64,000 nucleotides of DNA from positions 124,001 through 188,000 of the forward strand of contig JASTWF010000418.1 in NCBI GenBank assembly GCA_030390025.1, in the 5' to 3' direction. Origin of the DNA: Squalus acanthias (taxonomy: Eukaryota). Of this stretch, positions 1 through 49,115 are shown piece by piece; position 1 is the stretch's first letter; every line of letters starts with the position of its first letter. Made by a program: the position numbers and the translations under genes. A model generated the notes under the pieces. It did no database searches and had not been told where the DNA came from. It saw only the letters and a list, made by a program, of their open reading frames with translations.

Positions 1-299
1 AGGCATTAGTGGGCGGTGAGAGATCAGGCCCACCTTGGAGCCCCCCAGTTAATCGCCCCCCAGTTAATCGCCCCCCAGACTGGGGGGACAGCGAGATCAG
101 CCCCTCACTCAGAGCCCCCCAGTTAATCACCCCCCAGACTGGGGGGAACAGTGAGATCAGCCCCTCACTCGGTGCCCCCCAGTTAATCGCCCCCCAGACT
201 GGGGTGAACAGCGAGATCAGCCCCTCACTCAGAGACCCCCAGTTTACCGGCCCCCCAGTTAATCGCCCCCCAGACTGGGGGGGAAGAGCGAGAGGAGCC

Positions 300-1988
300 T
301 GTAGGATATAGTGTACCTGTAGGATTTAGTAAACATTGTTAAGATTTTGTAACCATTATTAAGTAAGTATAATATGTGAAATTGTATGTTAAAAACCTAA
401 AACGCCTGTATAAAATGGCTGGGAAGCAAAGCATGATGGTAAAATTAAGCCAACATTATGTTAACTGGGAGAATAGTGCTGAGTTGGTGTAGATTTTCTG
501 TTATATTAAAAACAAGAAGCCAGTGAAGGACAAAGCATTAATTAAGTCTCAAAGTAAGACAAAGGGGTAGAAATTAGGTCACGCCCCATTTGGGGTGCAA
601 ATATCGTCTGGACGCAAATATTAGCGCCTGGCGCTAATTATCGGCACTGACTGGAAACTTCACTTTTACCGCCCCGGGAGGTGAGTGGAGCGCTAAATCA
701 GGCGCTGCACACCTGTCTTAAGGCGCAAAGGCCAAGGAGTGAGGCGCTACCTCAGAGCGCTGGCGAAGCTCATGTAATGTCAGTCAGCAATGGAACACAC
801 ACACAATGGCACGGGCCAGTTCTTAAAGGGGATGGTTAATCTTGCTTTCCATCCACATCCTGTTCATTGCAGCCTTTAATCTCGGCCTGGAGAGACTGGC
901 ACATCAAATGTGCTGGAAAGAACAATGGAGAGTACCAGGCAAAGAGCTCAGAGTGCAGCTCCCACAATCTCTGCTAAATCGATACAAGGAATGGCAAATC
1001 AAAATGAACCTGCAAAGTGCTGCTCAGTACCCAAAACTCCTTCACACAACGTTGAATCTCTCCAGAAGTCTCTCCCTCTCTCTCTCAGAATGCGTAGTTC
1101 AAAAATGCCACCAACAATAAAAGACAGGAAGAGGCCCCCTTTAAATAGCGCCCCCCCCAGCCCCACAGCGATTGATAGCGTTCCAGTCTTCTGGTCGTTG
1201 GATGCGCCAGGCGGTAAGGCAGGGGGCGCCACTCAATTTCCGCTCCGGGGCGCCACAAGGGCGTTGCACCATGGAATGACGTCACAATCTGCGCGCGCAG
1301 GTGGTCGCAGCGGTAAAGTTTAGCGCCGCCGCACAATCTCTAGTTAAGTTCCCGAGCGGCGCAAACATCGCTGCGCCCGGGCGTTAGCGGCTTTGCGCCC
1401 CATTAGCGCCCTCTTAAGGCGCTAACGGGAGGCGCAACCAACTGAATTTTTACCCCAAAGGGTTTTCAATACCGAACATCCCTCATCGCTGAAGTTTCAG
1501 ACCAGTCTAGATAATGGGCTGTGGGAAAGGCAAAAGACCTCCGTCTTAATTCATGGGAAGTCCGGCTATGTGCAAGATCTCAAACTCAAAGTTCACAGCA
1601 GAATAGGGGAGGGAATCATAGACCGTACTTGTGAAGGTCAGCATGGTGAGATAGCCCAAGCAGCTGCCAGTTGCTATGTATTTTGAAAGGGAAAAAAAAG
1701 GTATAAAGGAACAGCTATTGAACACTGAAAGCAGTGCGAAACCAGAGGTCGAGAAGCTTCAGTCAACAGAACACAGCAAGAGAATAAAGAGACCGCGCCG
1801 CAGTCACTCGGAAGGAACGCCAGGGTTCAATGAACAGACGGCGACTATCTTCTTGTTAAGTATTACTTCTTTATACTGGATGTTTAATGTTTAATAAACC
1901 TGTTTTACTGATACACAATATACCTGGACCCAGAGTGGTTTGTGTCATAGAAACACGGACAAATTAATTCAGAGCTTTAAAAGCTACA
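300..1988 (+). mobile_element. Candidate solo LTR (about 0.8 kb) interrupted by a MITE; second copy at about 40145-41833
   Basis: Termini TGTAG...CTACA, AATAAA near the 3' end, and it interrupts the 60-bp minisatellite. TSD is not clean. Confidence 0.5.
564..1456. mobile_element. Non-autonomous DNA transposon (MITE, PIF/Harbinger-like); copy at 40409-41301
   Basis: TIR GGGGTAGAAATT / AATTTTTACCCC with a 3-bp AAA direct repeat on each side. No transposase. Confidence 0.75.
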
Positions 1989-1994
1989 AGACCC

Positions 1995-2460
1995 ACCTCA
2001 GAGCCCCCCAGTTAATCACCCCCCAGACTGGGGGGAAGAGCGAGATCAGCCCCTCACTCAGAGCCCCCCAGTTAATCGCCCCCCAAACTGGGGGAAACAG
2101 CGAGATCAGCCCCTCAGTCAGAGCCTCCCAGTTAATCACCCCCCAGACTGGGGGGAACAGTGAGATCAACCCCTCACTCAGAGCCCCCCAGTTAATCGCC
2201 GCCCAGACTGGGGGGAAGAGCGAGATCAGCCCCTCACTCGGAGCCCCCCAGTTAATCGCCCCCCAAACTGGGGGAAACAGCGAGATCAGCCCCTCACTCA
2301 GAGCCTCCCAGTTAATCACCCCCCAGACTGGGGGGAAGAGTGAGATCAACCCCTCACTCAGAGCCCCCCAGTTAATCAGACCCCAGACTGGGGGGAAGAG
2401 CGAGATCAGCCCCTCACTCGGAGCCCCGCAGTTTACCGGCCCCCCAGATTGGGGGGAACA
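1995..2460. repeat. 60-bp minisatellite with CCCCCCAG-a-CTGGGGGG hairpin (also 20-290, about 39865-40135 and about 41840-42305)
   Basis: Direct reading. Confidence 0.9.
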
Positions 2461-2798
2461 GCGTTGGGGGGGTTTCTGACGTCTGGGTTGTGATTCCGCG
2501 GGGGCTCATTAACGACAATCGCGGGAACCCGCTGGATTGAAATGGGGGGGGTGGGGGGGGGCCGGGGAGGAGCGCCCCTCGCGATCTGTTCCCCGGGTCA
2601 CAAACCTCCCCTCCCCTCCCCCGGTGACTGGGAGCCAAGCCCAGGGGTTAACCCACTAAACCTTCAACCCCCAACTCTCTAATCCCAGCACAAATCTCCA
2701 CCTCAATCCCCCAGCCCAATTCAACCTCCCTAACCCCCGAACCCTCGCTGCCCCCCCGCCCCCCCCCCCCAACAACCCCCAGCAGTCCAGACACTCAC

Positions 2799-3116
2799 CT
2801 CTGGTCCTGATCTCCTTGACGATCGGTTGGGTCAGCGTCTGGTGTGAGACGACACACTGGTACTTGTCCACATCCACCCAGTCTCGACCCCTGACCTCCA
2901 GCTGACTGACGGTGGTGTACCGAGCCGCGGGGTCTCGGGACAGAGGCTGCTCGGTGATTCCCGACCTCACTCGTCTTCCGTCCGAGAACCAGGAGATCCG
3001 CACACTGGGGGGGTAGAATCCGCTGACTAGGCAGAGCAGGGGGGTGAAACCGTTCTCCGATATCTCCCCCGGGGGCGGGTAATGAAGCTGGACCGAGGGA
3101 GGAGAGGACGATGGCA
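2799..3116 (-). CDS. Copy A exon 3: C1-set domain C1 (gene continues beyond the window start)
   Basis: 318 nt. One amino-acid difference from copy B (PAARY vs PADRY). Confidence 0.93.
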
Positions 3117-3649
3117 CTGGAACAAGAATCAAGGGGTCAGTCACTGGCCCGAGTGTCTCTGGCCCAGAATCGAGGGGTCAGTCACTGACCTCAGTGTGTC
3201 TGGCCCAGAATCGAGGGGTCAATCACTGACCTCAGTGTGTCTGGTACAGAATCGAGGGGTCATTCTCTGACCTCTGATCTCACAATCACATATATCACAA
3301 GAACAGTGTGCGTGACTAGAGGTCTATAAAGATCGTGAGCTTTTCTTTTAGCAGAGAGGGACAAGGACGAAAGGTTCGACGATGGTTAGGTCTCTACCCA
3401 CAGGATAAACGGGGTTAATTGTGTTTACTTCTCTGCTTGGTTGAGCACATTAAAAGGTTTAAGTTGAAACCATATTTGGCATCAGATTCGAATTCTCTGA
3501 CACAGGGCAATGGGACTAAGGAGGGAGCTCGGTCAGAGAGAGGGCACGGGGGCGATGGGCTAAATTTCCTCGTCTGCTGTAAAATTCTCTCACTTTATGA
3601 TCCTTGAGTCACAGATATAAACAACAAACTCTAGGATACTTGGAATTCC

Positions 3650-4430
3650 CACTACAGGTTCTTCCCCTGTGGGACTCCTCACTCCCAAAACTGTTCGAAT
3701 CTTCACCCTGAAACTGTGGGGACTCCTTGACCTCAAAACTGTAGGATTCTTCACCCCCCAAACTGTGGGACTCCTCTTCCCCAAACTGTGGGACTCTTCA
3801 TCCCCCAAACTGTGGGACTCCTCTACCATAAGACTGTAGGATTCTTCACCTCCAAATTGTGGGACTCCTCATCTCCGAAACTCTGGTACTCCTCACCTCC
3901 CAAACTCTGAGACTCCTCACCTTCAAACCAATGGAATCCTCATCTCCAATTATTGGGACTCCTCACTCCCAAAATTATTGGTTCTCTCACCTCAAAAGTG
4001 TCGGTCTCCATGACCACCAAACTGTTCAACTCTTCACCCCCAAACTGTGAGTCTCCTCACCCCCAAAACTCTGGGACTCCTTACCCCCAAACTGTGGGAC
4101 ACCTTCCTTCCAAACTCTGGGACTCCTTACCCACAAACTGTGGGACTCCTCACCCCCAAACTGTGGGACTCCTCACCCCCCAAACTCTGGGATGCGGCAC
4201 CCCCAAAACCCTGGGACTCCTCACCACCAAATTGTGGGACTCCTCACTTCCAAACTTTGGGACTCCTCAACCCCGCAAACTGTGGGGACTCCTCACCACC
4301 AAACTGTAGGACTCCTCAACACCAAACTGTGGGACTGCTCACTTCCAACCTCTGGGAGTCCTCGCCCCCAAACTGTGCTACCTTTCACCCCCAAACTGTT
4401 GGACTCCTCACCCCCAAATTCTGTGACCCC
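3650..4430. repeat. Degenerate 24-bp minisatellite (caaactgtgggactcctcaccccc) in the V-C1 intron (copy at about 43496-44276)
   Basis: Direct reading. Confidence 0.85.
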
Positions 4431-4614
4431 TCATCTCTCTAAATTGTCCCTTTGTCCTAAAATCAGCTGGTCTTGGCGTAACTCCAAACCACCGTTCCCT
4501 GAACTGCCTCATCTGATGTCCTCCACCCTCCAAGCTTGGCTGTGGGCCATCGACTGCCCGTTCCCATTCCACCCCTCCCTTGCCCCCAAACGGGTTTCGG
4601 ACGAGCTCCCCTAC

Positions 4615-4995
4615 CGGCCTCGACCTTCAGTGTAGATCCACAGCCGCACCAATCTGTCGTGTTCTTGTCTCCCAGGTGGTCTGTCATTTGGCAGAAGTAC
4701 TTGGTGGAATCTTGCTGCGTGGCATTAGCGATCCGCAGAGACATCTGCTTTCGGCCAAAGTTCTTCTCGGCCACGTAATGGTGAGCTTTCCCAGCCACGA
4801 AGATGGGGACCTGTGACTTGGGGCTCCAGTACACCAGCTGCTTCATGGCCCCAGTGCCAGGGGGGACGTAACCCCAGATCAAGTACCGGTCGTCTGTCTT
4901 GCGGGAGAATCGGCACTCCATCGTGACCGACTCGCCCTCCCGGACGCTCATTAATGTGGACGAGAATCGGAAGTTCCCACCGCAGGAGGTGAGCC
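4615..4995 (-). CDS. Copy A exon 2: joined VJ-type V domain
   Basis: 381 nt with the same splice sites as copy B. Four amino-acid differences from copy B. Confidence 0.93.
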
Positions 4996-5116
4996 CTGAA
5001 AATAGAGAGAGAGACACAACTCGTGAATCCTCCCACCAAAGATAACTCAGGAAATGTAGGACGGTCGCAGCTAAGGCTGCACTTTGACATTGGTCAAGGT
5101 AAAGCTTGGTACAGAA

Positions 5117-8100
5117 CCTTGGTTAGACCACACTTGGAGCAATGTGCCCAGTCCCGGTCTCCATATACCTTGGATAGACCACACTTGGAGCACTGTGCAC
5201 AGTCCCGGTCTCCACATACCTTGGATAGACCACACTTGGAGCACTGTGCACAGTCCCGGTCTCCACATACCTTGGTTAGACCACACTTGGAGCAATGTGC
5301 CCAGTCCCGGTCTCCATATACCTTGGATAGACCACACTTGGAGCAATGTGCCCAGTCCCGGTCTCCACATACCTTGGATAGACCACACTTGGAGCAATGT
5401 GCCCAGTCCCGGTCTCCACATACCTTGGATAGACCACACTTGGAGCACTGTGCACAGTCCCGGTCTCCATATACCTTGGATAGATCACACTTGGAGCAAT
5501 GTGCACAGTCCCGGTCTCCATATACCTTGGATAGACCACACTTGGAGCACTGTGCACAGTCCCGGTCTCCACATACCTTGGATAGACCACACTTGGAGCA
5601 CTGTGCACAGTCCCGGTCTCCACATACCTTGGATAGACCACACTTGGAGCACTGCACACAGTCCCGGTCTCCACATACCTTGGATAGACCACACTTGGAG
5701 CACTGTGCACAGTCCCGGTCTCCACATACCTTGGATAGACCACACTTGGAGCACTGTTCACAGTTATGGTTTCCATATACCTTGGTTAGACCACACTTGG
5801 AGCAATGTGCCCAGTCCCGGTCTCCATATACCTTGGATAGATCACACTTGGAGCACTGTGCACAGTCCCGGTCTCCACATACCTTGGATAGACCACACTT
5901 GGAGCACTGTTCACAGTTATGGTTTCCATATACCTTGGTTAGACCACACTTGGAGCAATGTGCCCAGTCCCGGTCTCCACATACCTTGGATAGACCACAC
6001 TTGGAGCAATGTGCACAGTCCTGGTCTCCATATACCTTGGTTAGACCACACTTGGGGCAATGTGCATAGTCCCGGTCTCCATATACCTTGGTTAGACCAC
6101 ACTTGGAGCACTGTGCACAGTTCTGGTCTCCACATCCCTTACTTAGACCACACTTGGAGCACTGTGCACAGTTCTGGTCTCCACATCCCTTAGTTAGACC
6201 ACACTTGGAGCACTGTGCACAGTTCTGGTCTCCACATCCCTTACTTAGACCACACTTGGAGCACTGTGCACAGTTCTGGTCTCCACATCCCTTAGTTAGA
6301 CCACGCTTGGGGCACTGTGCACAATTCTGGTCTCCACATACCTTGGTTAGACCACGCTTGGAACTCCGTGCACAGTTCTGGTCTCCACATCCCTTAGTTA
6401 GACCACGCTTGGAGCACTGTGCACAGTTATGCTCTCCATATACCTTGGTTAGACCACACTTGGAGCACTGTGCACAGTTCTGCTCTCCATATACCTTGGT
6501 TAGACCACACTTGGAGCAATGTGCACAGTTCTGCTCTCCATATACCTTGGTTCGACCACACTTGGAGCGCTGTGCACAGTTCTGGTCTCCATATGCCTTG
6601 GTTAGACCACACTTGGAGCACTGTGCACAGTTAAGGTCTCCATTTAAAAAAATATATATTTTATTCGTTTATGGGATCTGGGCGTCGCTGGCAAGGCCAG
6701 CATTTATTGTCCATCCCTAGTTGCCCTTGAGAAGGTGGTGGTGACTCAATTTCTTGAACCGTTGCAGTCCGTGTGGTGATGGTACTCCCACAGTGCTGTC
6801 AGGGAGGGAGTTCCAGGATTTTGACACAGCGACGATGAAGGATCGGCCGATATACTTCTAAGTCAGGATGGTGTGTGACTTGGAGGGGAACTTGGAGGTG
6901 GTGGTGTTCCCATGTGCCTGCTGCCCTTATCCTTCTCGGTGGAAGAGGTCGCGGGTTTGGGAGGTGCTGCTGAAGAAGTCTTGGCGAGTTGCTGCAGTGC
7001 ATCTTGTAGATGATACACACTGCAGCCACGGTACGCCGGTGGCGGAGGGAGTGAATGTTTAAGGTGGTGGATGGGGTGCCAATCAAGCGGGCTGCTTTGT
7101 CCTGGATGGTGTCGAGCTTCTTGAGTGTTATTGGAGCTGCACTCATCCAGGCAAGTGGAGAGTATTCCATCACACTCCTGACTTGTGCCTTGTAGATGGT
7201 GGAAAGGCTTTGGGGAGTCAGGAGGTGAGACACTCGCCACAGAATACCCAGCCTCTGACCTGCTCTTGGTGCCACAGTATTTATGTGGCTGGTCCAGTTA
7301 AGTTTCTGGTTAATGTTGACCCCCAGGATGTTGATGGTGGGGGATTCGGCGACGGTAATGCCATTGAATGTCAAGGGGAGGTGGTTAGATTCTCGCTTGT
7401 TGGAGATAGTCATTGCCTGGCACTTCTGTGGCGCAAATGTTACCTGCCACTTATCAGCCCAAGCCTGAACGTCGTCCAGGTCTTGTTGCATGCGGGCATG
7501 GACTGCTTCATTATCTGTGGAGTTGTGAATGGCGCTGAACACTGTGCAGTCATCAGCGAACATCCCCATTTCTGACCTTATGTTGGAGGGAAGGTCATTG
7601 ATGAAGCAGCTGAAGATGGTTGGGCCGAGAACACTCCCCTGAGGAACTCCTGCAGTGATGTTCTGGGGCTGTGATGATTGACCTTCAACCACCACAACCA
7701 TCTTCCTTTGTGCTAGGTATGACTCCAGCCAGTGGGGTAGACCACACTTGGAGCTAGTTCTGGTCTCCACATCCCTTGGTTAGACCACACTTGGAGCAAT
7801 GTGCACAGTTCTGCTCTCCATATAACTTGGTTAGACCACACTTGGAGCACTGTGCACAGTTCTGTTCTCCATATACCTTGGTTAGACCACACTTGGAACA
7901 ATGTGCACAGTTCTGCTCTCTATATAACTTGGTTAGACCACACTTGGAACAATGTGCACAGTTCTGCTCTCCATATAACTTGTTTAGACCAGACTTGGAG
8001 CACTGTGCACAGTTCTGTTCTCCATATACCTTGGTTAGACCACACTTGGAGCACTGTGAACAGTTCTGTTCTCCATATACCTTGGTTAGACCACACTTGG

Positions 8101-8130
8101 AGCAATGTGCACAGTTCTGGCCTCCATATT
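5117..8130 (+). repeat. 51-bp satellite derived from CR1 ORF2 (copy at about 44964-48030)
   Basis: Unit ccttggttagaccacacttggagcactgtgcacagttctggtctccatata encodes LVRPHLEHCAQFWSPYT. It runs directly into CR1 sequence at 8130. Confidence 0.92.
6650..7735 (-). mobile_element. CR1-group non-LTR retrotransposon 3' fragment (second family) inserted in the 51-bp satellite; copy at about 46497-47584
   Basis: [36 protein letters not shown]. The copy B version carries frameshifts. Confidence 0.88.
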
Positions 8131-8880
8131 ACAAAAAAATACAGAAAGGCATTGAAGAAGGTGCAATAAAAATTTACAAGGATGATGCCAGAACTGAGAG
8201 GTTATACTTATCAGGAAAGACTGAACAGGCTAGGGCTCTTTTCTCCAGAAAAAGAGAAGGCTGATAGAGGTCTTTCAAATTATGAAACGGTTTGATAGGG
8301 TAAACAGAGACAAAATGTTTCCACTTGCAGAGGAGACCAGAACTAGTTGACATAAATATATGATAGTCACTAAGGCGATTGACAAAAGAACTAGAGGCAA
8401 CCTGAGGAAAAGCTTCAATACGCAGCGAGTGATTAGGATCGGGAATGCACTGCTTAATGGGGCGATGGATACAGACTCAATAGTGGCCTTCAAAAGGGAA
8501 TTGGATAAATACTTGAAGGAGAAAACATTGCAGGGATCTGGGGAATGAGCGGGCAGAATGGGACTAACTGGGTTGCTCTTAGAAAGAGCTGATGCAGACT
8601 CGATGGGCTGAATGGCCTCCTTCTGTGCTGTACTATTCTACGATTCTAATAAATTGAAGAAGGAATTCAGGAGAAACTTCTTTACCCAGGGAGTGCTGAG
8701 AATGTGGAACTCGTCACCACAGGGAGTGGTTGAGGCGAATATCACAGAGGTCTTTAAGGGGAGGCTAGATAAAGACATGAGGGAGAAAGGAATAGCAGCT
8801 TATGCTGGTAGGGTGAGATGAAGAGGGGAGGGAGAAGGCAGCATGGAGCAGTTGGGCTGAATGGCCTTTTCCTGCTCGAT
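8130..8880 (+). mobile_element. Degenerate CR1 3' fragments in the leader-V intron (copy at about 48030-48780)
   Basis: RRNFFTQ..VxxWN-type peptides and a CR1 3' UTR. Confidence 0.75.
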
Positions 8881-8912
8881 AAACTCAATGTAATTCTCGA
8901 TGTAAACCTTAC

Positions 8913-8958
8913 CAGCCAGGAGGAAGATGTGGACAGAGAGTGAAATCACCGACTTCAT
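8913..8958 (-). CDS. Copy A exon 1: signal peptide
   Basis: Identical to 48813-48858, with donor GTAAGG. Confidence 0.85.
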
Positions 8959-9064
8959 GTTGGGAGGAGAGCTGACACGACACATCCTTCTCAACGGCTG
9001 GAGTCCGATCTTCTGGTCCTCGCACACACCCCCTTTCAGAGCGAGTCAGCCTCTGTCCTTCCTC

Positions 9065-9214
9065 TCCATTCATTGGTCACCAGTCCCGGACACAGTTTCC
9101 TGTGTGTGATTGACAGGCTGAGGGACTTCCCTCATTAGCCAGAGGTGGTGAGGCTGGAGACTGAGGCTGGGCACAGCGGAGGGCACTGGGCAACGAGAGC
9201 GGACCCTGCCCTCC
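9065..9214 (-). promoter_or_regulatory. Putative proximal promoter of copy A
   Basis: Same motifs as copy B, with GGGACTTCCC at 9122-9131. This 150-bp block is repeated at 11194-11343. Confidence 0.5.
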
Positions 9215-12200
9215 CCTCAGACCCTCTGACCCTCAGTCCCTCTGACCCTCAGTCCCACTGACCCTCAGTCCCTCTGACCCTCAGTCCCTCTGGCCCTCAG
9301 TCCCACCGACCCTCAGTCCCTCTGACCCTCAGTCCCACTGACCCTCAGTCCCACTGACCCTCAGTCCCACTGACCCTCAGTCCCTCTGACCCTCAGTCCC
9401 ACTGACCCTCAGTACCACTGACCCTCAGTCCCTCTGACCCTCAGTCCCTCCGAACCTCAGTCCCTCTGACCCTCAGTCCCTCTGACCCTCAGTCCCTCTG
9501 ACCCACAGTCACTCTGACCCTCATTCCCTCTGACACTCAGTCCCTCTGACCCTCAGTCCCTCTGACCCTCAGTCCCTCTGACCCTCAGTCCCTCTGACCC
9601 TCATTCCCTGTGTCACCCAGTCCCTCTGACCCTCATTCTCTCAGACCCTCAGTCTCTCTGACCCACAGTCCCACTGACCCTCAGTCCCTCTGACCCTCAG
9701 TCCCTCTGTCCCTCAGTCCCACTGACCCTCAGTCCCTCTGACCCTCAGTCCCTCTGACCCACATTCTCTCTGACCCTCAGAACCTCTGACCCTCAGTCCC
9801 TCTGACCCTCAGTCCCTCTGACCCTCAGTCCCACTGACCCTCACTCCCTCTGACCCTCAGTCCCACTGACCCTCAGTCCCACTGACCCTCAGACCCTCTG
9901 ACCCTCAGTCCCACTGACACTCAGTCCCACTGACCCTCAGTCCCTCTGACCCTCAGTCCCACTGACCCTCAGTCCCTCTGACCCTCAGTCCCACTGACCC
10001 TCACTCCCTCTGACCCTCAGTGCTTCTGACCCTCAGTCCCTCTGACCCTCAGTCCCTCTGAGAATCCGTCCCTCTGACCCTCAGTCTCACTGACCCTCAG
10101 TCCCTCTGACCCTCAGTCCCTCTGACCCTCATTCTCTCTGACCCTCAGAACCTCTGACCCTCAGTCCCTCTGACCCTCAGTCCCTCTGACCCACATTCTC
10201 TCTGACCCTCAGAACCTCTGACCCTCAGTCCCTCTGACCCTCAGTCCCTCTGACCCTCAGTCCCTCTGACCCTCATTCTCTCTGACCCTCAGACCCTCTG
10301 ACCCTCAGTCCCTCTGACCCTCAGTCCCTCTGACCATCAGTCCCACTGACCCTCAGTCCCTCTGACCCTCAGTCCCTCTGACCCTCAGACGCTCTGATCC
10401 TCAGTCCCTCTGACCCTCAGTCCCTCTGACCCTCAGTCCCACTGACCCTCAGACCCTCTGACACTCAGTCCCTCTGACCCTCAGTCCCTCTGACCATCAG
10501 GCCCTCTGACCCTCAGTCCCTCTGACCCTCAGTCCCTCTGACCCTCAGTCCCACTGACCCTCCCTCCCTCTGACCCTCAGTCCCTCTGACCCTCAGTCCC
10601 TCTGACCCTCAGTCCCTTGACCCTCACTCCATTGACCCTCAGTCCCTCTGACCCTCAGTCCCTCTGACCCTCAGTCCCTCTGACCCTCAGTCCCTTGACC
10701 CTCACTCCATTGACCCTCAGACCCTCAGACCCTCTGACCCTCAGTCCCTTGACCCTCACTCCATTGACCCTCAGACCCTCTGACCCTCAGACCCTCTGAC
10801 CCTCAGACCCTCTGACCCTCAGTCCCTCTGACCCTCAGTCCCACTGACCATCAGCCCCTCTGACCCTCAGTCCCTCTGACCCTCAGTCCCTCTGACCCTC
10901 AGTCCCACTTACCATCAGTGCCCACAGTCAGTCACTGACCAGCTCCCTGAGAGCGGCCGCAAGGGTAATCAAGACGATGGAGAGGCTCCTCCGATCACTG
11001 TCAGTCCGTCTCACTCTCGCTCTGTTTACATCAGCTGTCCCGTGAGAGGGAAGATTCCGGAAATCACCAGAAGTTTCACTGTTGCTCAAAGAGGGAAGTG
11101 ATTCACAAATAACGGAGACCAAAATAAATCGAAAGGGCACGAGATTTTTTATTGGCTGAGTGAGATAATGCTGTCCAAACCGAAGCATTCCTGTCCATTC
11201 ATTGGTCACCAGTCCCGGACACAGTTTCCTGTGTGTGATTGACAGGCTGAGGGACTTCCCTCATTAGCCAGAGGTGGTGAGGCTGGAGACTGAGGCTGGG
11301 CACAGCGGAGGGCACTGGGCAACGAGAGCGGACCCTGCCCTCCGCTCAGTCCCACTGACCCTCAGTCCCACTGACACTCAGTCCCTCTGACCCTCAGTCC
11401 CTCTGACCCTCAGTCCCTCTGACCCTCAGCCCCTCTGACCCTCAGTCCCTCTGACCCTCAGTCCCTCTAACCCTCACTCCCTCTGACCCTCAGTCCCACT
11501 GACCCTCAGTCCCTCTGACCCTCAGTCCCACTGACCCTCAGTCCCTCTGACCCTCAGTCCCACTGACCCTCAGTCCCTCTGACCCTCAGTCCCTCTGACC
11601 CTCAGTCCCTCTGACCCTCAGTCCCACTGACCCTCAGTCCCTCTGACCTCACTCCCACTGACCCTCAGACCCTCTGACCCTCAGTCCCTCTGACCCTCAG
11701 TCCCACTGACCCTCAGTCCCTCTGAGCCTCAGTCCCTCTGACCCTCAGTCCCTCTGACCCTCAGTCCCACTGACCCTCAGTCCCTCTGACCCTCAGTCCC
11801 TCTGACCCTCAGTCCCTCTGACCCTCAGACCCTCTGACCCTCAGTCCCACTGACCCGCAGTCCCTCTGACCCTAAGTCCCTCCGACCCTCCCTCCCACTG
11901 ACCCTCCCTCCCACTGACTCTCAGTCCCTCTGACCCTCAGTCCCTCTGACCCTCCCTCCCACTGACCCTCAGTCCCTCTGACCCTCAGTCCCTCTGACTC
12001 TCAGTCCCTCTGACCCTCAGTCCCTCTGACCCTCCCTCCCACTGACCCTCAGTCCCTCTGACCATCAGTCCCTCTGACCATCAGTCCCTCTGTCCCTCTG
12101 ACCCCCATTCCCTCTGACCCTCAGTCCCTCTGACCCTCAGTCCCTCTGACCCTCAGTCCCTCTGAACCTCAGTCCCTCTGACCTTCAGTCTCTCTGACCC

Positions 12201-23270: not shown

Positions 23271-23356
23271 CTACCTCTTCTGATCCAGCGATGGGATGGT
23301 CTCCATTTGAAGTTCACCCTGTGGCCAGAGACTGTTTCTCTGCATTCGGTAACTGC
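23271..23356 (-). CDS. Copy B terminal cytoplasmic exon (S/G-SYRMQRNSLWPQGELQMETIPSLDQKR*)
   Basis: Strong acceptor tttttcctcttctcttccctcacctgcAG. Phase-1 reading gives 28 residues, then TAG at 23273-23271. Confidence 0.7.
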
Positions 23357-24108: not shown

Positions 24109-24246
24109 CCTTTCTCTTCTGCCTGCAAGTCCTGATGCTGTGGGAAACGCTCAGGATGATGACTGTGTAGACGATCAGCCCGCAGACCGCGAGGAGAATC
24201 CAGAGCCAGGCCCAGTCCCCGAGCTCTCCCCTCAATATCGAGGGCC
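24109..24246 (-). CDS. Copy B transmembrane exon
   Basis: Acceptor ctgcttccccacAG, 138 nt, phase 1-1. GPSILRGELGD-WAWLWILLAVCGLIVYTVIILSV-SHSIRTCRQKRK: a hydrophobic helix followed by a basic stop-transfer cluster. Confidence 0.85.
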
Positions 24247-27553: not shown

Positions 27554-27877
27554 CTCGCTCCTTCCTGAGCACCCGTTCCACCAGTTCTTTCGAGGACCGG
27601 TGTCCCACCACACAGGAGTAGCTCTGGCCCCTCTCCCAGGCTTCCGACGGGACGGAGAGCTGGCTGACGGCGCCGAAGGTCCCGTTGCTGTCTGGGGTCA
27701 CCGGGAAGGTGGTCCTTCCGCTTGTGACCTCGCTGCCCTGGGCTCTCCAGGTCAAGTACACGTCTCCAGGGTAGAAACCGGACACAAAGCAGGCCAGAGT
27801 TGTCGTCCCATCGTTGAGGGAACCCTCCCGCTGTCCCACTTCCAAGGTGCGTATTTCAGGGCTCTTCACCAGCTGGG
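27554..27877 (-). CDS. Copy B exon 9: C1-set domain C7 (duplicate of C5)
   Basis: 324 nt (alternative donor would end at 27539). Identical to C5 in protein except L/V after GFYPGD. Confidence 0.9.
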
Positions 27878-29137: not shown

Positions 29138-29458
29138 CGTCTCCTGCAGTGATCGTGCTGGTTACTGGGGTTGTCAGGGCCTCGTGTGTAACCTCACAGG
29201 TGTAACTGGCCCCCGAACCCCAGTCCTCCCCGGACACCGTCAACTCACTCCTGGACCTGTAGGTCCCGTCCGGGTTGGCAAGGCACGGCAGAGCCTGGGA
29301 GCCGCCGCCCACCTCCGACTCCGCACCGATCCACCGGAAGGATATCGTATCCGGGTAGAACCCAGTGGCGGCGCAGGCCAGCGTGGCGGTCTGATTGGTC
29401 AGAATCTCCTGGATCGAGGGAGGGACGAGGCGGACGGACGGAGGGGAGGGGGAACGGG
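29138..29458 (-). CDS. Copy B exon 8: C1-set domain C6 (duplicate of C4)
   Basis: 321 nt with intact splice sites. Identical to C4 in protein except I/V near the C-terminus. Confidence 0.9.
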
Positions 29459-31816: not shown

Positions 31817-32140
31817 CTCGCTCCTTCCTGAGCACCCGTTCCACCAGTTCTTTCGAGGACCGGTGTCCCACCACACAGGAGTAGCTCTGGCCCCTCTCCC
31901 AGGCTTCTGACGGGACGGAGAGCTGGCTGACCGCGCCGAAGGTCCCGTTGCTGTCTGGGGTCACCGGGAAGGTGGTCCTTCCGCTTGTGACCTCGCTGCC
32001 CTGGGCTCTCCAGGTCAAGTACAGGTCTCCAGGGTAGAAACCGGACACAAAGCAGGCCAGAGTTGTCGTCCCATCGTTGAGGGAACCCTCCCGCTGTCCC
32101 ACTTCCAAGGTGCGTATTTCAGGGCTCTTCACCAGCTGGG
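31817..32140 (-). CDS. Copy B exon 7: C1-set domain C5
   Basis: 324 nt, gatttcAG / GTGAAG. An alternative in-frame donor G|GTGAGG would end the exon at 31802. CFVSGFYPGDLYLTW, YSCVVGH. Confidence 0.9.
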
Positions 32141-33015: not shown

Positions 33016-33336
33016 CGTCTCCTGCAGTGATGGTGCTGGTTATTGGGGTTGTCAGTGCCTCGTGTGTAACCTCACAGGTGTAACTGGCCCCCGAACCCCA
33101 GTCCTCCCCGGACACCGTCAACTCACTCCTGGACCTGTAGGTCCCGTCCGGGTTGGCAAGGCACGGCAGAGCCTGGGAGCCGCCGCCCACCTCCGACTCC
33201 GCACCGATCCACCGGAAGGATATCGTATCCGGGTAGAACCCAGTGGCGGCGCAGGCCAGCGTGGCGGTCTGATTGGTCAGAATCTCCTGGATCGAGGGAG
33301 GGACGAGGCGGACGGACGGAGGGGAGGGGGAACGGG
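33016..33336 (-). CDS. Copy B exon 6: C1-set domain C4
   Basis: 321 nt, ccccctcAG / GTGAGT. PPSVRLVPPS, CAATGFYPDTISFRW, YTCEVTH, plus an extra Cys in ALPCLA. Confidence 0.93.
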
Positions 33337-34757: not shown

Positions 34758-35075
34758 CTTCGCTGCGGACCTGTGTCCTGATTGGCTCAGCCAGTGTCCG
34801 GTGAGACACCAGGCAGGTGTAGAGTGATCCTCTTGTCCACTGCGAGCTGGAGGCGGTCAGTCTGCTGATCAGGGTATAACTCCCGTCCGGTTGGATGGAG
34901 GGGCCGGTGTCCGCGAAGCCTGAACTGACCGGCTGACCGTCCACCTCCCAGGAGAGCGAGATGTTCCGCGGGTAGAAACCGGTGGCTCCACAGGTGAGCT
35001 TGACCTCGCTCCCGGCCGCGATCTCCTCAGGAGGAGGGCGGTGGAGGAAGGTGGAGGGAGGCTGCGGAGAGCGCA
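34758..35075 (-). CDS. Copy B exon 5: C1-set domain C3
   Basis: 318 nt, ctctctcctttgcAG / GTCAGT. CGATGFYPRNISLSW, DGSYTLISRL, YTCLVSH. Confidence 0.93.
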
Positions 35076-35215
35076 CTGCAAAGGAGAGAGTTAAACATTG
35101 TGAAGATCATTCTCCGGGTAATATCACTTTGAACAAACGCCCATTTATCTCGGCCCGTTGACACAGTAACACCTCCCAAGGTGCTTCACAGGAGCGATTA
35201 GCAAACAAAACATTC

Positions 35216-36710
35216 GATGGAATCTGGAACTGTACCCATGGATTGGAGGGTAGCTAATGTTACCCCACTATTCAAAAAGGGTGGTAGAGAGAAAGCGGGG
35301 AATTACAGACCGGTAAGCCTGACATCGGTAGTGGGGAAAATGCTAGAGTCCATTATAAAGGATGTAATAGCTGAGCATTTGAAAAACAGTGACAGGATCG
35401 GACAAAGTCAACATGGATTTACAAAAGGTAAATCGTGCTTGACTAATCTACTGGAATTTTTTGAGGATGTAACTGGGAAAATAGATAAGGGAGAACCAGT
35501 AGATGTGGTGTATTTGGACTTTCAAAAGGCTTTCGATAAGGTCCCGCATAAGAGATTAGCGGGTAAAGTTAAGGCACATGGGATTGGGGGCAAGGTATTG
35601 ACTTGGATAGAGAACTGGTTGGCGGACAGAAAGCAGAGAGTAGGAATTAATGGGTCTTTTTCCGAGTGGCAAGCAGTGACTAGTGGGGTACCGCAGGGAT
35701 CGGTCCTTGGACCCCAGCTATTCACAATATACATTAATGATCTAGATAAGGGAATTAAATGTAATATCTCCAAGTTTGCAGATGACACAAAGCTGGGTGG
35801 GAGTGTGTGCAGCGAGGAGAATAGCGAGAAACTCCAGGATGATCTGGACAGGTTGGGTGAGTGGGCAGAAGCATGGCAGATGCAATATAACGTGGATAAG
35901 TGCGAGGTTATCCACTTTGGTGTCAAAAACAGAAAGGCAGACTATTATCTGAATGCCAATAGATTGGGAGAAGGGGAAGTGCAACGAGACCTGGGTGTCA
36001 TTGTGCACCAGTCGCTGAAAGTAAGCATGCAGGTGCAGCAAGCGGTGAAGAAGGCAAATGGTATGTTGGCCTTCATAGCGAAAGAGTTTGAGTATAGGAA
36101 CAGGGATGTCCTGCTGCAGTTGTACAGGGCCTTGGTGAGACCACACCTTGAGTACTGTGTGCAGTTTTGGTCGCCTTATCTGAGGAAGGATGTTCTTGCC
36201 ATGGAAGGAGTTCAGCGAAGATTCACAAGGCTGATACCTGGGATGGCAGGAATGACATATGAGGAGAGATTGGGTCGATTGGGCTTATACTCACTGGAGT
36301 ATAGAAGAATGAGAGGGGATCTCATCGAAACATATAAAATTCTGACAGGTCTGGACAAACTAGATGCAGGAAGAATGTTCCCGATGGTCGGAGAGTCCAG
36401 AACCAGGGGTCATAATCTACGGATAACGGGTAAACGATTTAGGACAGAAATGAGAAAGAATTTCTTCACCCAGAGAGTAGTGAACCTGTGGAATTCTCTA
36501 CCACAGAAGGTAGTTGAGGCGAAGTCATTAAATATATTCAAGGATAAGTTAGATATATTTCTTAAAGCTAAAGGTATCAAGGGATATGGGGAGAAGGAAG
36601 GTACAGGGTACTGAGTTTAGATGATCAGCCATGACCTCATCGAATGGCGGAGCAGGCTCGAGGGGCCGAATGGCCTACTCCTGCTCCTATCTTCTATGTT
36701 TCTATGTTAT
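35216..36710 (+). mobile_element. Young 5'-truncated CR1 LINE (465-aa open RT frame)
   Basis: RT motifs, 3' UTR hairpin region and TTCTATGT tail. Confidence 0.95.
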
Positions 36711-36905
36711 GTTTCTAACCCGTGCTGTACCTGCCCTGGGAGTGTTTGATGGGACAATATGGAGGGAGCTTTACTCTGTATCTAACCTGTACTGCACCTG
36801 CCCTGGGAGTCTTTGATCGGACAGTGTAGAGGGAGCTTTACTCTGTATCTAACCCGTGCTGTACCTGCCCTGGGAGTGTTTGATGGGACAGTGTAGAGGG
36901 AGAGG

Positions 36906-39265
36906 GTGTTGTGTAATGAGGAAGGACTAATCAGCAATCTTGTGGTACGAGGCCCCCTGGGGAAGAGTGACCATAGTATGGTGGAGTTCTACATTAGGAT
37001 GGAGAAGGAAACATTTAAGTCAGAGACCATGGTCCAGAACTTAAATAAGGGCAACTTTGAGGGTATGAGGCGTGAATTGGTGAGGTTAAATTGGCAAGCG
37101 ATATTTAAGGGGCTATCAGTGGAAGGGCAATGGCAGACATTTAGAGATCGCATGGATGAACTACAACAATTGTACATCCCGGTCTGGCGTAAAAATAAAA
37201 AAGGGAAGGTGGCTCAACCATGGCTAACAAGGGAAATCAGGGATAGTATTAAAACCAAGGAAGTTGCATACAAATTGGCCAGAAGTAGCAGCAAACCCGG
37301 GGACTGGGAGAACTTCAAAACTCAGCAGAGGAGGACGAAGGGTTTGATTAGGACAGGGAAAATAAAATATGAAAGGAAGCTTGCAGAGAACATTAAAATG
37401 GACTGCAAAAGCTTCTATAAATATGTAAAAGGAAAGAGGTTAGTAAAAACAAACGTAGGTCCCCTGCAGTCGGAAACAGGGGAAGACGTAATGGGGAACA
37501 AGGAAATGGCTGATCAATTGAACAAGTACTTTGGTTCGGTGTTTACTGTGGAGGACACACACAACCTGCCGGAAATAAAAGGGGTCAGAGGATCTGGTAA
37601 GAGGGAGGAGCTAAGGGAAATCCTTATTAGTCGGGAAAAGGTATTGGGAAAATTGATGGGACTGAAGGCTGAAAAATCCCCGGGGCCTGATGGTCTGCAT
37701 CCCAGAGTACTTAAGGAGGTGGCCTTGGAAATAGTGGATGCATTGACGATCATTTTCCAACATTCCTTAGACTCTGGATCAGTTCCGATGGAGTGGAGGG
37801 TGGCCAATGTAACCCCTCTTTTTAAAAAAGGAGGGAGGGAGAAAGCTGGGAATTATAGACCGGTCAGCCTGACATCGGTCGTGGGTAAAATGATGGAAGC
37901 AATTATTAAAGATGTCATAACAGACCAATTTGAAAGTGGCGACATGATAGGTCCAAGTCAGCATGGATTTGTGAAAGGGAAATCATGCTTGACAAATCTT
38001 CTGGAATTTTTTGAGGATGTTTCCAATAGGGTGGACAGGGGGGAACCAGTAGATGTGGTGTATTTGGACTTTCAGAAGGCCTTCGACAAGGTCCCACACA
38101 AGAGATTGGTGAGCAAAGTTAAAGCACATGGGATTGGGGGTAATGTGTTGACGTGGATTGAGAACTGGTTGGCACACAGGAAACAAAGAGTAGGAGTAAA
38201 TGGGTACTTTTCAGAATGGCAGGCAGTGACCAGCGGGGTACCGCAGGGTTCGGTGCTGGGACCCCAGCTGTTTACATTATATATTAATGATTTGGACGAA
38301 GGGATTAAATGTAATATCTCCAAATTTGCGGATGACACTAAATTGGGAGGCAGTGTGAACAATGAGGAGGATGCTAGGAGGCTACAGAGTGACTTGGACA
38401 GGTTGGGTGAATGGTCAAATGTATGGCAGATGAAGTACAATGTGGATAAATGTGAGGTTATCCACTTTGGTGGTAAAAATAGAGAGGCGGACTACTACCT
38501 GAATGGTGGCAGATTAGGGAAAGGGGAGGTGCAACGAGACCTGGGCGTCATGGTACATCAGTCACTGAAGGTGGGAATGCAAGTGCAGCAGGCAGTCAAG
38601 AAAGCAAACGGAATGATGGCCTTCATAGTAAGGGGATTTGAGTACAGGAGTAGGGAGGTGATGCTGCAGTTGTACAGGGCCTTGGTGAGGCCACACCTGG
38701 TGTATTGTGCGCAGTTTTGGTCTCCTAACTTAAGGAAGGACATTCTTGCTATTGAGGGAGTGCAGCGAAGGTTCACTAGATTGATTCCTGGGATGGCCGG
38801 TCTGACATATCAAGAAAGATTGGGTCAACTGAACTTGTATCCTCTGGAGTTCAGAAGAATGAGGGGGGATCTTATAGAGACATTTAAAATCCTGACTGGT
38901 TTAGACAAATTAGATGCGGGCAGAATGTTCCCAATGTTAGGGAAAACTAGAACCAGGGGTCACAGTCTAAGGATTAAGGGGAAGCAATTTAAGACTGAGC
39001 TGAGGAGGAACTTCTTCACCCAGAGAATGGTGAATCTATGGAATTCTCTTCCACAGAAGGTTGTTGAGGCCAGTTCGCTAAATATATTCAAAAGGGAGTT
39101 AGATATAACACTCACAACTAGGGGGATCAAGGGGTATGGCGAGAAAGCAGGAATGGGGTACTGAGCTAGCATGTTCAGCCATGAACGCATTGAATGGCGG
39201 TGCAGGCTCGAAGGACCGAATGGTCTACTCCAGTACCTAGTTTCTATGTTTCTATGTTTCTATGT
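36906..39265 (+). mobile_element. Young 5'-truncated CR1 LINE (ORF2 linker + RT, 752-aa open frame) in the C2-C3 intron
   Basis: [41 protein letters not shown] and a (TTCTATGT)n 3' tail. It splits a ~67-bp minisatellite. Confidence 0.95.
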
Positions 39266-39493: not shown

Positions 39494-39814
39494 CGTCATG
39501 TTTGCTGAGGGTCTGTGTCAGCGGAGTTGTTGAGGAAAGGTGTTTGACCAGACAGGTGAAGATTGATCCTGAATCCCATTCCCGGACAGGGACCTTTAAC
39601 GTGCTGCTGGAACTGTAGCTCCCATTCTCGTGTTGCGTTGTGTGGCCAGGCTCCGAGGAGAAGGATGTCTGGCGGTTATTGATGAGCCAGGTGAAGGAGA
39701 TCTTCCTGGGGTGAAATCCGACTGCCTGACACCCCAATGTGGCCGTCCTGTTAGTGTCCATTTCATCGTAGGTGGGGGGTAGGACGTAGACGCTGGGAAC
39801 CGTAGGGTATCGGG
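39494..39814 (-). CDS. Copy B exon 4: C1-set domain C2
   Basis: 321 nt, ctccAG / GTAAGA. PSVYVLPP, CQAVGFHPRKISFTW, NGSYSSSSTL, W-DSG, FTCLVKH. Confidence 0.93.
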
Positions 39815-42644
39815 CTGGAGATCCACCGGAGAGACAACGGAATGAAGGCATTAGTGGGCGGTGAGAGATCAGGCCCACCTTGGAGCCCCCCAGTTAATCG
39901 CCCCCCAGTTAATCGCCCCCCCAGACTGGGGGGACAGCGAGATCAGCCCCTCACTCAGAGCCCCCCAGTTAATCACCCCCCAGACTGGGGGGAACAGTGA
40001 GATCAGCCCCTCACTCGGTGCCCCCCAGTTAATCGCCCCCAGACTGGGGTGAACAGCGAGATCAGCCCCTCACTCAGAGACCCCCAGTTTACCGGCCCCC
40101 CAGTTAATCGCCCCCCAGACTGGGGGGGAAGAGCGAGAGGAGCCTGTAGGATATAGTGTACCTGTAGGATTTAGTAAACATTGTTAAGATTTTGTAACCA
40201 TTATTAAGTAAGTATAATATGTGAAATTGTATGTTAAAAACCTAAAACGCCTGTATAAAATGGCTGGGAAGCAAAGCATGATGGTAAAATTAAGCCAACA
40301 TTATGTTAACTGGGAGAATAGTGCTGAGTTGGTGTAGATTTTCTGTTATATTAAAAACAAGAAGCCAGTGAAGGACAAAGCATTAATTAAGTCTCAAAGT
40401 AAGACAAAGGGGTAGAAATTAGGTCACGCCCCATTTGGGGTGCAAATATCGTCTGGACGCAAATATTAGCGCCTGGCGCTAATTATCGGCACTGACTGGA
40501 AACTTCACTTTTACCGCCCCGGGAGGTGAGTGGAGCGCTAAATCAGGCGCTGCACACCTGTCTTAAGGCGCAAAGGCCAAGGAGTGAGGCGCTACCTCAG
40601 AGCGCTGGCGAAGCTCATGTAATGTCAGTCAGCAATGGAACACACACACAATGGCACGGGCCAGTTCTTAAAGGGGATGGTTAATCTTGCTTTCCATCCA
40701 CATCCTGTTCATTGCAGCCTTTAATCTCGGCCTGGAGAGACTGGCACATCAAATGTGCTGGAAAGAACAATGGAGAGTACCAGGCAAAGAGCTCAGAGTG
40801 CAGCTCCCACAATCTCTGCTAAATCGATACAAGGAATGGCAAATCAAAATGAACCTGCAAAGTGCTGCTCAGTACCCAAAACTCCTTCACACAACGTTGA
40901 ATCTCTCCAGAAGTCTCTCCCTCTCTCTCTCAGAATGCGTAGTTCAAAAATGCCACCAACAATAAAAGACAGGAAGAGGCCCCCTTTAAATAGCGCCCCC
41001 CCCAGCCCCACAGCGATTGATAGCGTTCCAGTCTTCTGGTCGTTGGATGCGCCAGGCGGTAAGGCAGGGGGCGCCACTCAATTTCCGCTCCGGGGCGCCA
41101 CAAGGGCGTTGCACCATGGAATGACGTCACAATCTGCGCGCGCAGGTGGTCGCAGCGGTAAAGTTTAGCGCCGCCGCACAATCTCTAGTTAAGTTCCCGA
41201 GCGGCGCAAACATCGCTGCGCCCGGGCGTTAGCGGCTTTGCGCCCCATTAGCGCCCTCTTAAGGCGCTAACGGGAGGCGCAACCAACTGAATTTTTACCC
41301 CAAAGGGTTTTCAATACCGAACATCCCTCATCGCTGAAGTTTCAGACCAGTCTAGATAATGGGCTGTGGGAAAGGCAAAAGACCTCCGTCTTAATTCATG
41401 GGAAGTCCGGCTATGTGCAAGATCTCAAACTCAAAGTTCACAGCAGAATAGGGGAGGGAATCATAGACCGTACTTGTGAAGGTCAGCATGGTGAGATAGC
41501 CCAAGCAGCTGCCAGTTGCTATGTATTTTGAAAGGGAAAAAAAAGGTATAAAGGAACAGCTATTGAACACTGAAAGCAGTGCGAAACCAGAGGTCGAGAA
41601 GCTTCAGTCAACAGAACACAGCAAGAGAATAAAGAGACCGCGCCGCAGTCACTCGGAAGGAACGCCAGGGTTCAATGAACAGACGGCGACTATCTTCTTG
41701 TTAAGTATTACTTCTTTATACTGGATGTTTAATGTTTAATAAACCTGTTTTACTGATACACAATATACCTGGACCCAGAGTGGTTTGTGTCATAGAAACA
41801 CGGACAAATTAATTCAGAGCTTTAAAAGCTACAAGACCCACCTCAGAGCCCCCCAGTTAATCACCCCCCAGACTGGGGGGAAGAGCGAGATCAGCCCCTC
41901 ACTCAGAGCCCCCCAGTTAATCGCCCCCCAAACTGGGGGAAACAGCGAGATCAGCCCCTCAGTCAGAGCCTCCCAGTTAATCACCCCCCAGACTGGGGGG
42001 AACAGTGAGATCAACCCCTCACTCAGAGCCCCCCAGTTAATCGCCGCCCAGACTGGGGGGAAGAGCGAGATCAGCCCCTCACTCGGAGCCCCCCAGTTAA
42101 TCGCCCCCCAAACTGGGGGAAACAGCGAGATCAGCCCCTCACTCAGAGCCTCCCAGTTAATCACCCCCCAGACTGGGGGGAAGAGTGAGATCAACCCCTC
42201 ACTCAGAGCCCCCCAGTTAATCAGACCCCAGACTGGGGGGAAGAGCGAGATCAGCCCCTCACTCGGAGCCCCGCAGTTTACCGGCCCCCCAGATTGGGGG
42301 GAACAGCGTTGGGGGGGTTTCTGACGTCTGGGTTGTGATTCCGCGGGGGCTCATTAACGACAATCGCGGGAACCCGCTGGATTGAAATGGGGGGGGTGGG
42401 GGGGGGGCCGGGGAGGAGCGCCCCTCGCGATCTGTTCCCCGGGTCACAAACCTCCCCTCCCCTCCCCCGGTGACTGGGAGCCAAGCCCAGGGGTTAACCC
42501 ACTAAACCTTCAACCCCCAACTCTCTAATCCCAGCACAAATCTCCACCTCAATCCCCCAGCCCAATTCAACCTCCCTAACCCCCGAACCCTCGCTGCCCC
42601 CCCGCCCCCCCCCCCCAACAACCCCCAGCAGTCCAGACACTCAC

Positions 42645-42962
42645 CTCTGGTCCTGATCTCCTTGACGATGGGTTGGGTCAGCGTCTGGTGTGAGACGACA
42701 CACTGGTACTTGTCCACATCCACCCAGTCTCGACCCCTGACCTCCAGCTGACTGACGGTGGTGTACCGATCCGCGGGGTCTCGGGACAGAGGCTGCTCGG
42801 TGATTCCCGACCTCACTCGTCTTCCGTCCGAGAACCAGGAGATCCGCACACTGGGGGGGTAGAATCCGCTGACTAGGCAGAGCAGGGGGGTGAAACCGTT
42901 CTCCGATATCTCCCCCGGGGGCGGGTAATGAAGCTGGACCGAGGGAGGAGAGGACGATGGCA
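42645..42962 (-). CDS. Copy B exon 3: C1-set domain C1
   Basis: 318 nt, phase 1-1, ttgttccAG / GTGAGT. PPSVQLHYPP, CLVSGFYPPSVRISW, YQCVVSH. Confidence 0.93.
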
Positions 42963-44461: not shown

Positions 44462-44842
44462 CGGCCTCGACCTTCAGTGTAGATCCACAGCCGCACCAAT
44501 CTGTCGCATTCTTGTCTCCCAGGTGGTCAGCCATTTGGCAGAAGTACCTGGTGGAATCTTGCTGCGTGGCATTAGCGATCCGCAGAGACATCTGCTTTCG
44601 GCCAAAGTTCTTCTCGGCCACGTAACGGTGAGCTTTCCCAGCCACGAAGATGGGGACCTGTGACTTGGGGCTCCAGTACACCAGCTGCTTCATGGCCCCA
44701 GTGCCAGGGGGGACGTAACCCCAGATCAAGTACCGGTCGTCTGTCTTGCGGGAGAATCGGCACTCCATCGTGACCGACTCGCCCTCCCGGACGCTCATTA
44801 ATGTGGACGAGAATCGGAAGTTCCCACCGCAGGAGGTGAGCC
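44462..44842 (-). CDS. Copy B exon 2: complete V-set domain with germline-joined J-like strand
   Basis: Acceptor tctctctattttcAG, 381 nt, donor G|GTAGGG. Motifs: VTMEC (B-strand Cys), LIW, SLRI, DSTRYFC, then WCGCGSTLKVE (G-x-G-S/T-x-L-x-V). Confidence 0.93.
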
Positions 44843-48812: not shown

Positions 48813-48858
48813 CAGCCAGGAGGAAGATGTGGACAGAGAGTGAAATCACCGACTTCAT
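48813..48858 (-). CDS. Copy B exon 1: signal peptide (MKSVISLSVHIFLLA-G) of a non-rearranging V-C1 Ig-superfamily receptor
   Basis: ATG at 48858, 15 mostly hydrophobic codons plus 1 nt, then donor G|GTAAGG. This is the phase-1 split leader typical of Ig/TCR genes and it is in frame with the V exon. Confidence 0.85.
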
Positions 48859-48959
48859 GTTGGGAGGAGAGCTGACACGACACATCCTTCTCAACGGCTG
48901 GAGTCCAATCTTCTGGTCCTCGCACACACCCCCTTTCAGAGCGAGTCAGCCTCTGTCCT

Positions 48960-49115
48960 TCCTCTCCATTCATTGGTCACCAGTCCCGGACACAGTTTCC
49001 TGTGTGTGATTGACAGGCTGAGGGACTTCCCTCATTAGACAGAGGTGGTGAGGCTGGAGACTGAGGCTGGGCACAGCGGAGGGCACTGGGCAGCGAGAGC
49101 GGACCCTGCCCTCCC
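48960..49115 (-). promoter_or_regulatory. Putative proximal promoter of copy B
   Basis: Unique sequence about 100-250 nt upstream of the ATG. Contains CCAAT, an ETS-type ACAGGAAA and a kB-type GGGACTTCCC (49022-49031). No TATA box or octamer seen. Confidence 0.5.

Follow-up and report, generated by a model that had tools for sequence, protein, structure and literature searches.

UrIg2 is presented, in the available part of PMC12227049, as a gene with a split leader, a single VJ exon, many C1-set exons and a transmembrane (TM) exon, whose V domains pair through their A and G strands (PDB 9DMX) and are 50–60% identical between species, and which is expressed in gill and liver rather than lymphoid tissue. 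The same part of that paper links UrIg2 to IgH, TCR alpha/delta and PSMB5, reports conversion among its C domains, names two UrIg lineages, presents UrIg as the MHC-linked paralogue, secreted and conserved, and gives in table S1 a single UrIg2 gene per species for three sharks and, for stingray, two genes together with a C-only model. UrIg2 has been put forward as the nearest living relative of the gene that the RAG transposon entered.

Tandem germline arrays of IgSF genes are known from KIR, CD33-related Siglecs and NITR, which are shaped by conversion, with mosaic ligand-side domains and varying domain number. The array described here is unlike these in being built of VJ and C1-set domains, which, together with tandem clustering, it has in common with the germline-joined light- and heavy-chain clusters of shark Ig and with Ig/TCR. 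It is set apart from Ig/TCR by a window V that lies far nearer UrIg2 (188 bits versus ~37 for the best Ig/TCR matches), and no heptamer-nonamer (RSS-like) motif was found around either V exon of the window.

Identity of the window gene

The window, the whole 64,000-nucleotide stretch of spiny dogfish DNA that was analysed, contains a duplication in which positions 1–10922 are repeated at 39846–50805, with one V exon in each copy (genes L001 and L004). The best PDB match of the window V was 9DMX (nurse shark UrIg2, E 1e-54), with the next match at 3.5e-8; it was 61–79% identical to four shark/ray UrIg2 proteins versus only 35% to UrIg, which likewise has C1-set domains behind a lone VJ exon, and it fell in a UrIg2 clade with support of 100/99. 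The L001 exon gave a Pfam V-set match, and the closest database protein was sevengill shark P0002 (V 79% identical), whose domain order is that of L004, V followed by seven C domains and TM.

The exon organisation was likewise that of UrIg2, with a split leader (exon 8958–8913 in L001, a counterpart in 7/7 copies, peptide identical), a single 381-nt VJ exon with AG/GT borders in all seven copies, a G-strand cysteine pair (C116, C118) and loop sequon (N111-x-T113) invariant in all seven, and multiple C1-set exons with a duplicated membrane-proximal C pair, followed by TM and cytoplasmic exons. Three differences were found: the presence of seven V and six TM exons in this assembly and the repetition of a membrane-distal (C1-C2) pair, which are unlike UrIg2 as published in the available part of PMC12227049 (the repeated pair being undescribed there), and the lack, in the array C1 exons, of the C1 interchain cysteine present in nurse shark UrIg2. 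Judged by similarity and exon plan, the window gene is UrIg2, a non-rearranging shark VJ-C1 gene. The suggestion of the earlier note that its V is germline-encoded without RAG is supported by the joined VJ exon in every copy and by the result of the RSS search around both window V exons. Inspection by eye of the predicted cytoplasmic tail gave no ITIM or ITAM.

The tandem array and its exons

Seven close V matches and six TM matches were found in the genome, all on one unplaced contig (C3243, 416,886 bases), on which scans gave no other Ig-type exon and no proteasome match. Complete genes carry 7 (L007), 7 (L003), 15 (L002), 7 (L004) and 17 (L001) C exons, while L005 and L006, the latter inverted, are cut by the ends of the contig, and a 3′ fragment adjoins its sole gap (500 N). 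In the one assembly used, the UrIg2 genes and fragments of this tandem array number at least eight. Since the six distinct V sequences among the seven copies exceed two alleles, at least three loci are present. The genes hold 1, 2, 2, 5, 6 and at least 4 (C1-C2) modules, five further modules of L001 following outside the window, and differences in stalk length stem mainly from the number of these membrane-distal pairs, producing predicted ectodomains of 8 to 18 Ig domains.

Frames were open in all 73 exon copies examined (7 V, 21 C1, 20 C2, 5 C3, 10 C4 and 10 C5), exon borders were AG/GT and intact wherever printed, and the leader-to-V distance varied from 2.6 to 8.6 kb among copies. The possibility that V is a decaying pseudogene exon was rejected, as every one of the seven V copies keeps an open frame and the variable residues tend to fall outside conserved positions. 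Relative to the available part of PMC12227049, the copies or fragments (at least eight), the range of 7 to 17 in the C domains of complete genes and the contrast between V and C are new, from one assembly; a literature search, whose coverage lay outside the 2023 UrIg paper, found no report of such a UrIg2 array.

Features of the window and of its two UrIg2 genes (L001 coordinates for pair comparisons; X6 and X7 are read sets)
Feature	Position	Strand	Remarks
Near-identical block of both window copies	1..6548	.	Starts ~225 bases ahead of window
L001 first C1-set exon	2799..3116	-	X6 loose end matches 3087-3116, 1 mismatch
Likely conversion tract, widest L003/L004 interval without substitution	4566..5022	.	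L001 coordinates
L001 single VJ exon (H72, K98, T104, T112)	4615..4995	-	AG/GT, open frame, V-set, 9DMX; X6 covers exon, stops at borders
Six L001/L004 pair differences	4660..4779	-	4660-4684 alleles common to other copies; 4701 and 4779 private to L001 in assembly
L001 leader exon	8913..8958	-	X7 loose end matches 8914-8941
Predicted cytoplasmic exon	23271..23356	-	~28 residues, one tyrosine; splice predicted
Transmembrane exon	24109..24246	-	Donor inferred from sequence
L004 seventh C exon	27554..27877	-	99% copy of fifth
L004 sixth C exon	29138..29458	-	99% copy of fourth
L004 fifth C exon	31817..32140	-	Resembles nurse shark C3
L004 fourth C exon	33016..33336	-	Resembles nurse shark C2
L004 third C exon	34758..35075	-	C1-like
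L004 second C exon	39494..39814	-	
L004 C1 exon	42645..42962	-	
L004 VJ exon (R72, R98, A104, A112)	44462..44842	-	Identical to L003 V
L004 leader exon	48813..48858	-	

An element at 10930–11060 was also considered as the leader and rejected in favour of the spliced leader exon. Also upstream of the leader, a non-coding element, possibly promoter sequence, is duplicated (window 9059–9211, 11150–11340 and 10930–11060), with up to three extra copies ahead of some genes. Two long open frames at 35202–36614 and 36897–39164 (+; 470 and 755 aa) lie antisense in the L004 intron between the second and third C exons, and resemble LINE reverse transcriptase.

Differences between the two window copies

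Global alignment of the L001 V exon (4995–4615) with that of L004 (44842–44462), both on the minus strand, gave exactly six differing nucleotides, at 4660, 4661, 4682, 4684, 4701 and 4779, confirming the count made in the earlier note. With V residues numbered from the first full codon (4993), the changes from L001 to L004 are H72R, K98R, T104A (ACA/GCT) and T112A, with N111 silent (AAC/AAT), so that the four replacements listed there (H/R, K/R and two T/A) and the retention of the N-x-T sequon in both copies were reproduced. The statement that changes concentrate in the CDR3-equivalent stands for T104A and T112A, but these are only two of the four replacements, since a structure model of low confidence (pLDDT 65) places K98 on the F strand and H72 immediately ahead of strand D.

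The flanks had been described as almost identical introns, and this was true of the rest of 1–6548, where L001 and L004 differ by four 1-nt indels and four substitutions, of which 2824 and 2924 fall within the C1 exon and 3774 and 5057 within introns, and where a 51-bp array at 5116–6548 is identical in both. The near-identity ends at 6548, however, upstream of which 5/1071 and 13/772 sites differ within the same leader-V intron. For this pair, 6/381 sites differ in V versus 4/6167 in the rest of 1–6548 (Fisher p 6e-6), and the result of a scan test was 0/200,000, or p 0.0016 once near-adjacent sites were merged; the clustering of differences in V is beyond chance for L001 and L004.

Diversity and gene conversion across the array

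The excess of V divergence over introns, on which the earlier argument was built, disappeared once all seven copies were compared, with pi of 0.021 in V and, for the introns on either side, 0.022 and 0.023; this is an outcome that the earlier note had itself named as speaking against its reading. Pi was 0.020–0.026 in the leader intron and 0.003–0.010 on the C side (some segments without one or two copies), and the L001/L004 V divergence of 1.6% was below the family mean of 2.1%. The oddity of this pair is likely to be its recently homogenised flanks, not its V.

L004 and L003 differ at 0/381 sites in V, and at 4/170, 4/115 and 41/1071 in flanking segments, whereas L004 and L001 differ at 6/381 in V, and at 0/170, 1/115 and 5/1071 in the same flanks. 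The L003/L004 run at 4566–4931 ranked first among tracts when six copies and 137 sites were put to a permutation test (global p 0.0008), from which L006 was left out, a copy that lacks two intron segments; with all seven copies and 75 sites, the same tract was not significant (global p 0.18), and three other tracts were. Four gametes were present at 224/465 informative site pairs, requiring a minimum of 10 recombination intervals, although some of the incompatibilities could be recurrent mutation. At 4660/4661 and 4682/4684, the alleles of L001 are those of L002, and the alleles of L004 are those of L003, L005 and L007, so that four of the six pair differences are alleles common to several copies. 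Because L003 and L004 share an identical V within differing flanks, and because of these four shared alleles, gene conversion is the likely cause, and the patchy conversion offered as one option in the earlier note is thereby supported. The six-nucleotide cluster is probably a gene-conversion patch in V, within a tandem UrIg2 array, seen against flanks that probably became alike recently, and its appearance as a CDR3 hotspot mostly reflects conversion between copies as seen in this single pair. No literature on gene conversion in nonrearranging shark paralogs was found.

The array would have arisen by unequal crossing-over, which would also have altered how many (C1-C2) modules the stalks hold, with short conversion tracts shuffling V alleles among copies, and the flanks of L001 and L004 were likely homogenised between the two copies recently. 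Either the L004 V would have been taken from an L003-like donor, or the 4660–4701 block of L001 from an L002-like donor, each direction needing two events, and the alleles private to L001, at 4701 and 4779, would need new mutation or an unassembled donor. By likeness to 9DMX, the products may be disulfide-linked membrane homodimers of differing heights and slightly different V surfaces.

Read evidence

Contigs from four read sets served as read evidence, in which rare variants are dropped and phase is unreliable beyond ~31 bases; one DNA run may come from the very sample that was assembled. Both alleles at 4660/4661 were present in X5, and both at 4701 in X1. The L001 allele at 4682/4684 was present in X5, X6 and X7, its alternative being carried by 4/7 assembled copies and merely inferred in the reads. 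H72, the L001 allele at 4779, was found in 1/7 copies and 0/4 read sets, and is present in the assembly, unconfirmed by reads. The 1-nt insertion at 4566 (44413 in L004) was in none of the four read sets; relative to L001, the L004 insertions at 44413, 46988 and 47423 double the adjoining base, and are possibly long-read errors.

X6 continues from the V exon into the C1 exon, and X7 into the leader exon, and from these junctions the UrIg2 family is likely transcribed and spliced; no run is recorded as RNA, and the RNA-like character of X6 and X7 is a guess. Variants typical of L006 and L007 occur in X7, and the allele combinations of X6 and X7 match no assembled copy, within the limit on phase given above.

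Selection on the V and C domains

Replacement and silent changes stood at 17:4 in V versus 35:39 in the C exons (p 0.007), in unmatched samples of 7 copies for V and 5–21 for the C sets. piN/piS was 0.94 in V and 0.20–0.40 in C at similar synonymous pi (V 0.022, C 0.020–0.028), and V drifts faster at the protein level than the stalk C domains. V itself showed no departure from neutral expectation (p 0.80), and its replacement density overall was not above that of introns (p 0.43–0.86). At codons that vary in other species, 14/159 replacement sites segregate versus 45/1039 neutral sites (ratio 2.0, p 0.028), replacement density there being 1.7–2.0 times neutral over the intron references, with p 0.12 when the nearest introns were used.

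Fifteen V residues vary across the seven copies, 3/13 in the CDR3-like loop versus 12/113 elsewhere, giving no enrichment in the loop in this sample of seven (p 0.19), and the twelve non-loop residues lie scattered at either end of the V domain. Positions invariant across species were hit by 2/15 variable residues versus 45/95 (p 0.022), with conservation classes resting on four proteins from other species. Residues 7–19 and 113–126 are invariant among the seven copies, and, as a post hoc observation, no variable residue lies in the A or G dimer strands. In homologues of window 4413–5110 and in the C1 exons, variable sites within 3 bases of each other were commoner than expected by chance, at 12/20 in V and 12/18 in C1, which was not so in C2 (7/23), and near-adjacent clustering gave p 0.005 in C1, 0.02 in one intron/leader stretch, 0.07 in the V flanks (weak) and 0.70 in C2. 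A tandem-mutation signature specific to V was rejected, since C1 and the intron/leader stretch cluster too. Near-adjacent substitution clusters can inflate selection tests, and multinucleotide changes reportedly mislead such tests (10.1101/165969).

Diversifying selection focused on the CDR3-equivalent, as proposed in the earlier note, was not upheld by the lack of loop enrichment, the intron-like diversity of V and its piN/piS. What survives is weaker, namely more replacements in V than in C (p 0.007) and the 1.7–2.0-fold density at variable codons (p 0.12 or 0.03). The V pattern fits relaxed constraint, and mild diversifying selection is possible: V would still be purged of changes where other sharks and rays show conservation, and elsewhere would tolerate, and may mildly favour, replacements, while the C domains are under clear purifying selection.

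Alternative explanations

Selection might keep V alleles differing across the whole V surface, with conversion as its vehicle, which would add to the conversion explanation; this is conceivable, if on balance rather unlikely. The replacement excess of V over the C exons and the doubled ratio at codons variable in other species speak for it, as do, in the available part of PMC12227049, the three residues that differ between stingray paralogues (fig. S2), aligning to 81, 82 and 106 in the same two loops, and the mere 50–60% identity of UrIg2 V between species. It is opposed by an overall piN/piS of 0.94, by a replacement density not above introns overall and at p 0.12 against the nearest ones, by near-adjacent clusters that occur in V, C1 and introns alike, and by a diversity that does not peak at V, the leader intron being equally diverse. 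Narrowing this selection to the CDR3-equivalent as a ligand-binding loop makes for a very doubtful reading. Four of the six pair differences do fall in codons 104–112, and 3/13 loop residues vary family-wide, but this is no enrichment, a further twelve variable residues lie scattered at either domain end, both loop changes are T/A, both residues at 112 are found in other species, and the available part of PMC12227049 names no UrIg2 ligand.

An assembly artefact, with two haplotypes set in tandem or paralogous reads mixed during polishing, could produce identical flanks and a V mosaic, and would be in keeping with an unplaced, repeat-rich contig with a gap, the suspect 1-nt insertions in L004 and the absence of H72 from all four runs. 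It is nevertheless quite improbable, as the alternative alleles turn up in several further samples, L006- and L007-type variants in X7 among them, copies differ in module number and in leader-to-V distance, and all 73 examined exon copies are open, with borders intact where printed. Shark Ig hypermutation yields tandem mutations, and the near-adjacent substitution pairs resemble these, so that somatic AID-type mutation was considered as the source of the V differences; this is extremely unlikely, given that the same alleles recur across genomic copies and different samples, that clustering is not specific to V, and that UrIg2 is expressed in gill and liver rather than lymphoid tissue (PMC12227049, available part).

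With conversion among copies as the preferred reading, UrIg2, as a presumed present-day relative of the pre-RAG antigen-receptor gene, may in the lineage of this shark form a multigene receptor family of at least eight membrane genes, in which stalks range from 7 to 17 C domains and V alleles, mildly favoured to be unlike, are exchanged through short conversions, amounting to a germline repertoire without RAG, a proposal that is speculative and, taken whole, unlikely. The near-identical copies, natural V variants and differing stalk lengths are reagents with which binding of V to variable ligands, or to itself, can be tested.

Other UrIg-like loci in the genome

Three single-exon VJ genes, with C1-set exons after them, were observed on contig C3, at 132,095,163–465 (-), 132,113,832–114,194 (+) and 158,845,306–614 (-), comprising loci L044–L050, L054 and L055; the third V looks frameshifted. 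A proteasome scan was of no help in placing contig C3 or C3243. The two V exons that were compared are 38–47% identical to UrIg2 proteins and 40–44% to the UrIg of the same genome, form a branch of their own (support 84/83), and have sawfish UrIg2 (42%) as their sole database match. No literature was found under the name 'UrIg3', and, beside the two lineages named in the available part of PMC12227049, the C3 genes are possibly a third. A further locus at C336:67989–76716 (L051, L052) holds a V exon and two C exons, and is likely the UrIg orthologue, its V matching by eye the nurse shark UrIg of fig. S2 in the available part of PMC12227049.
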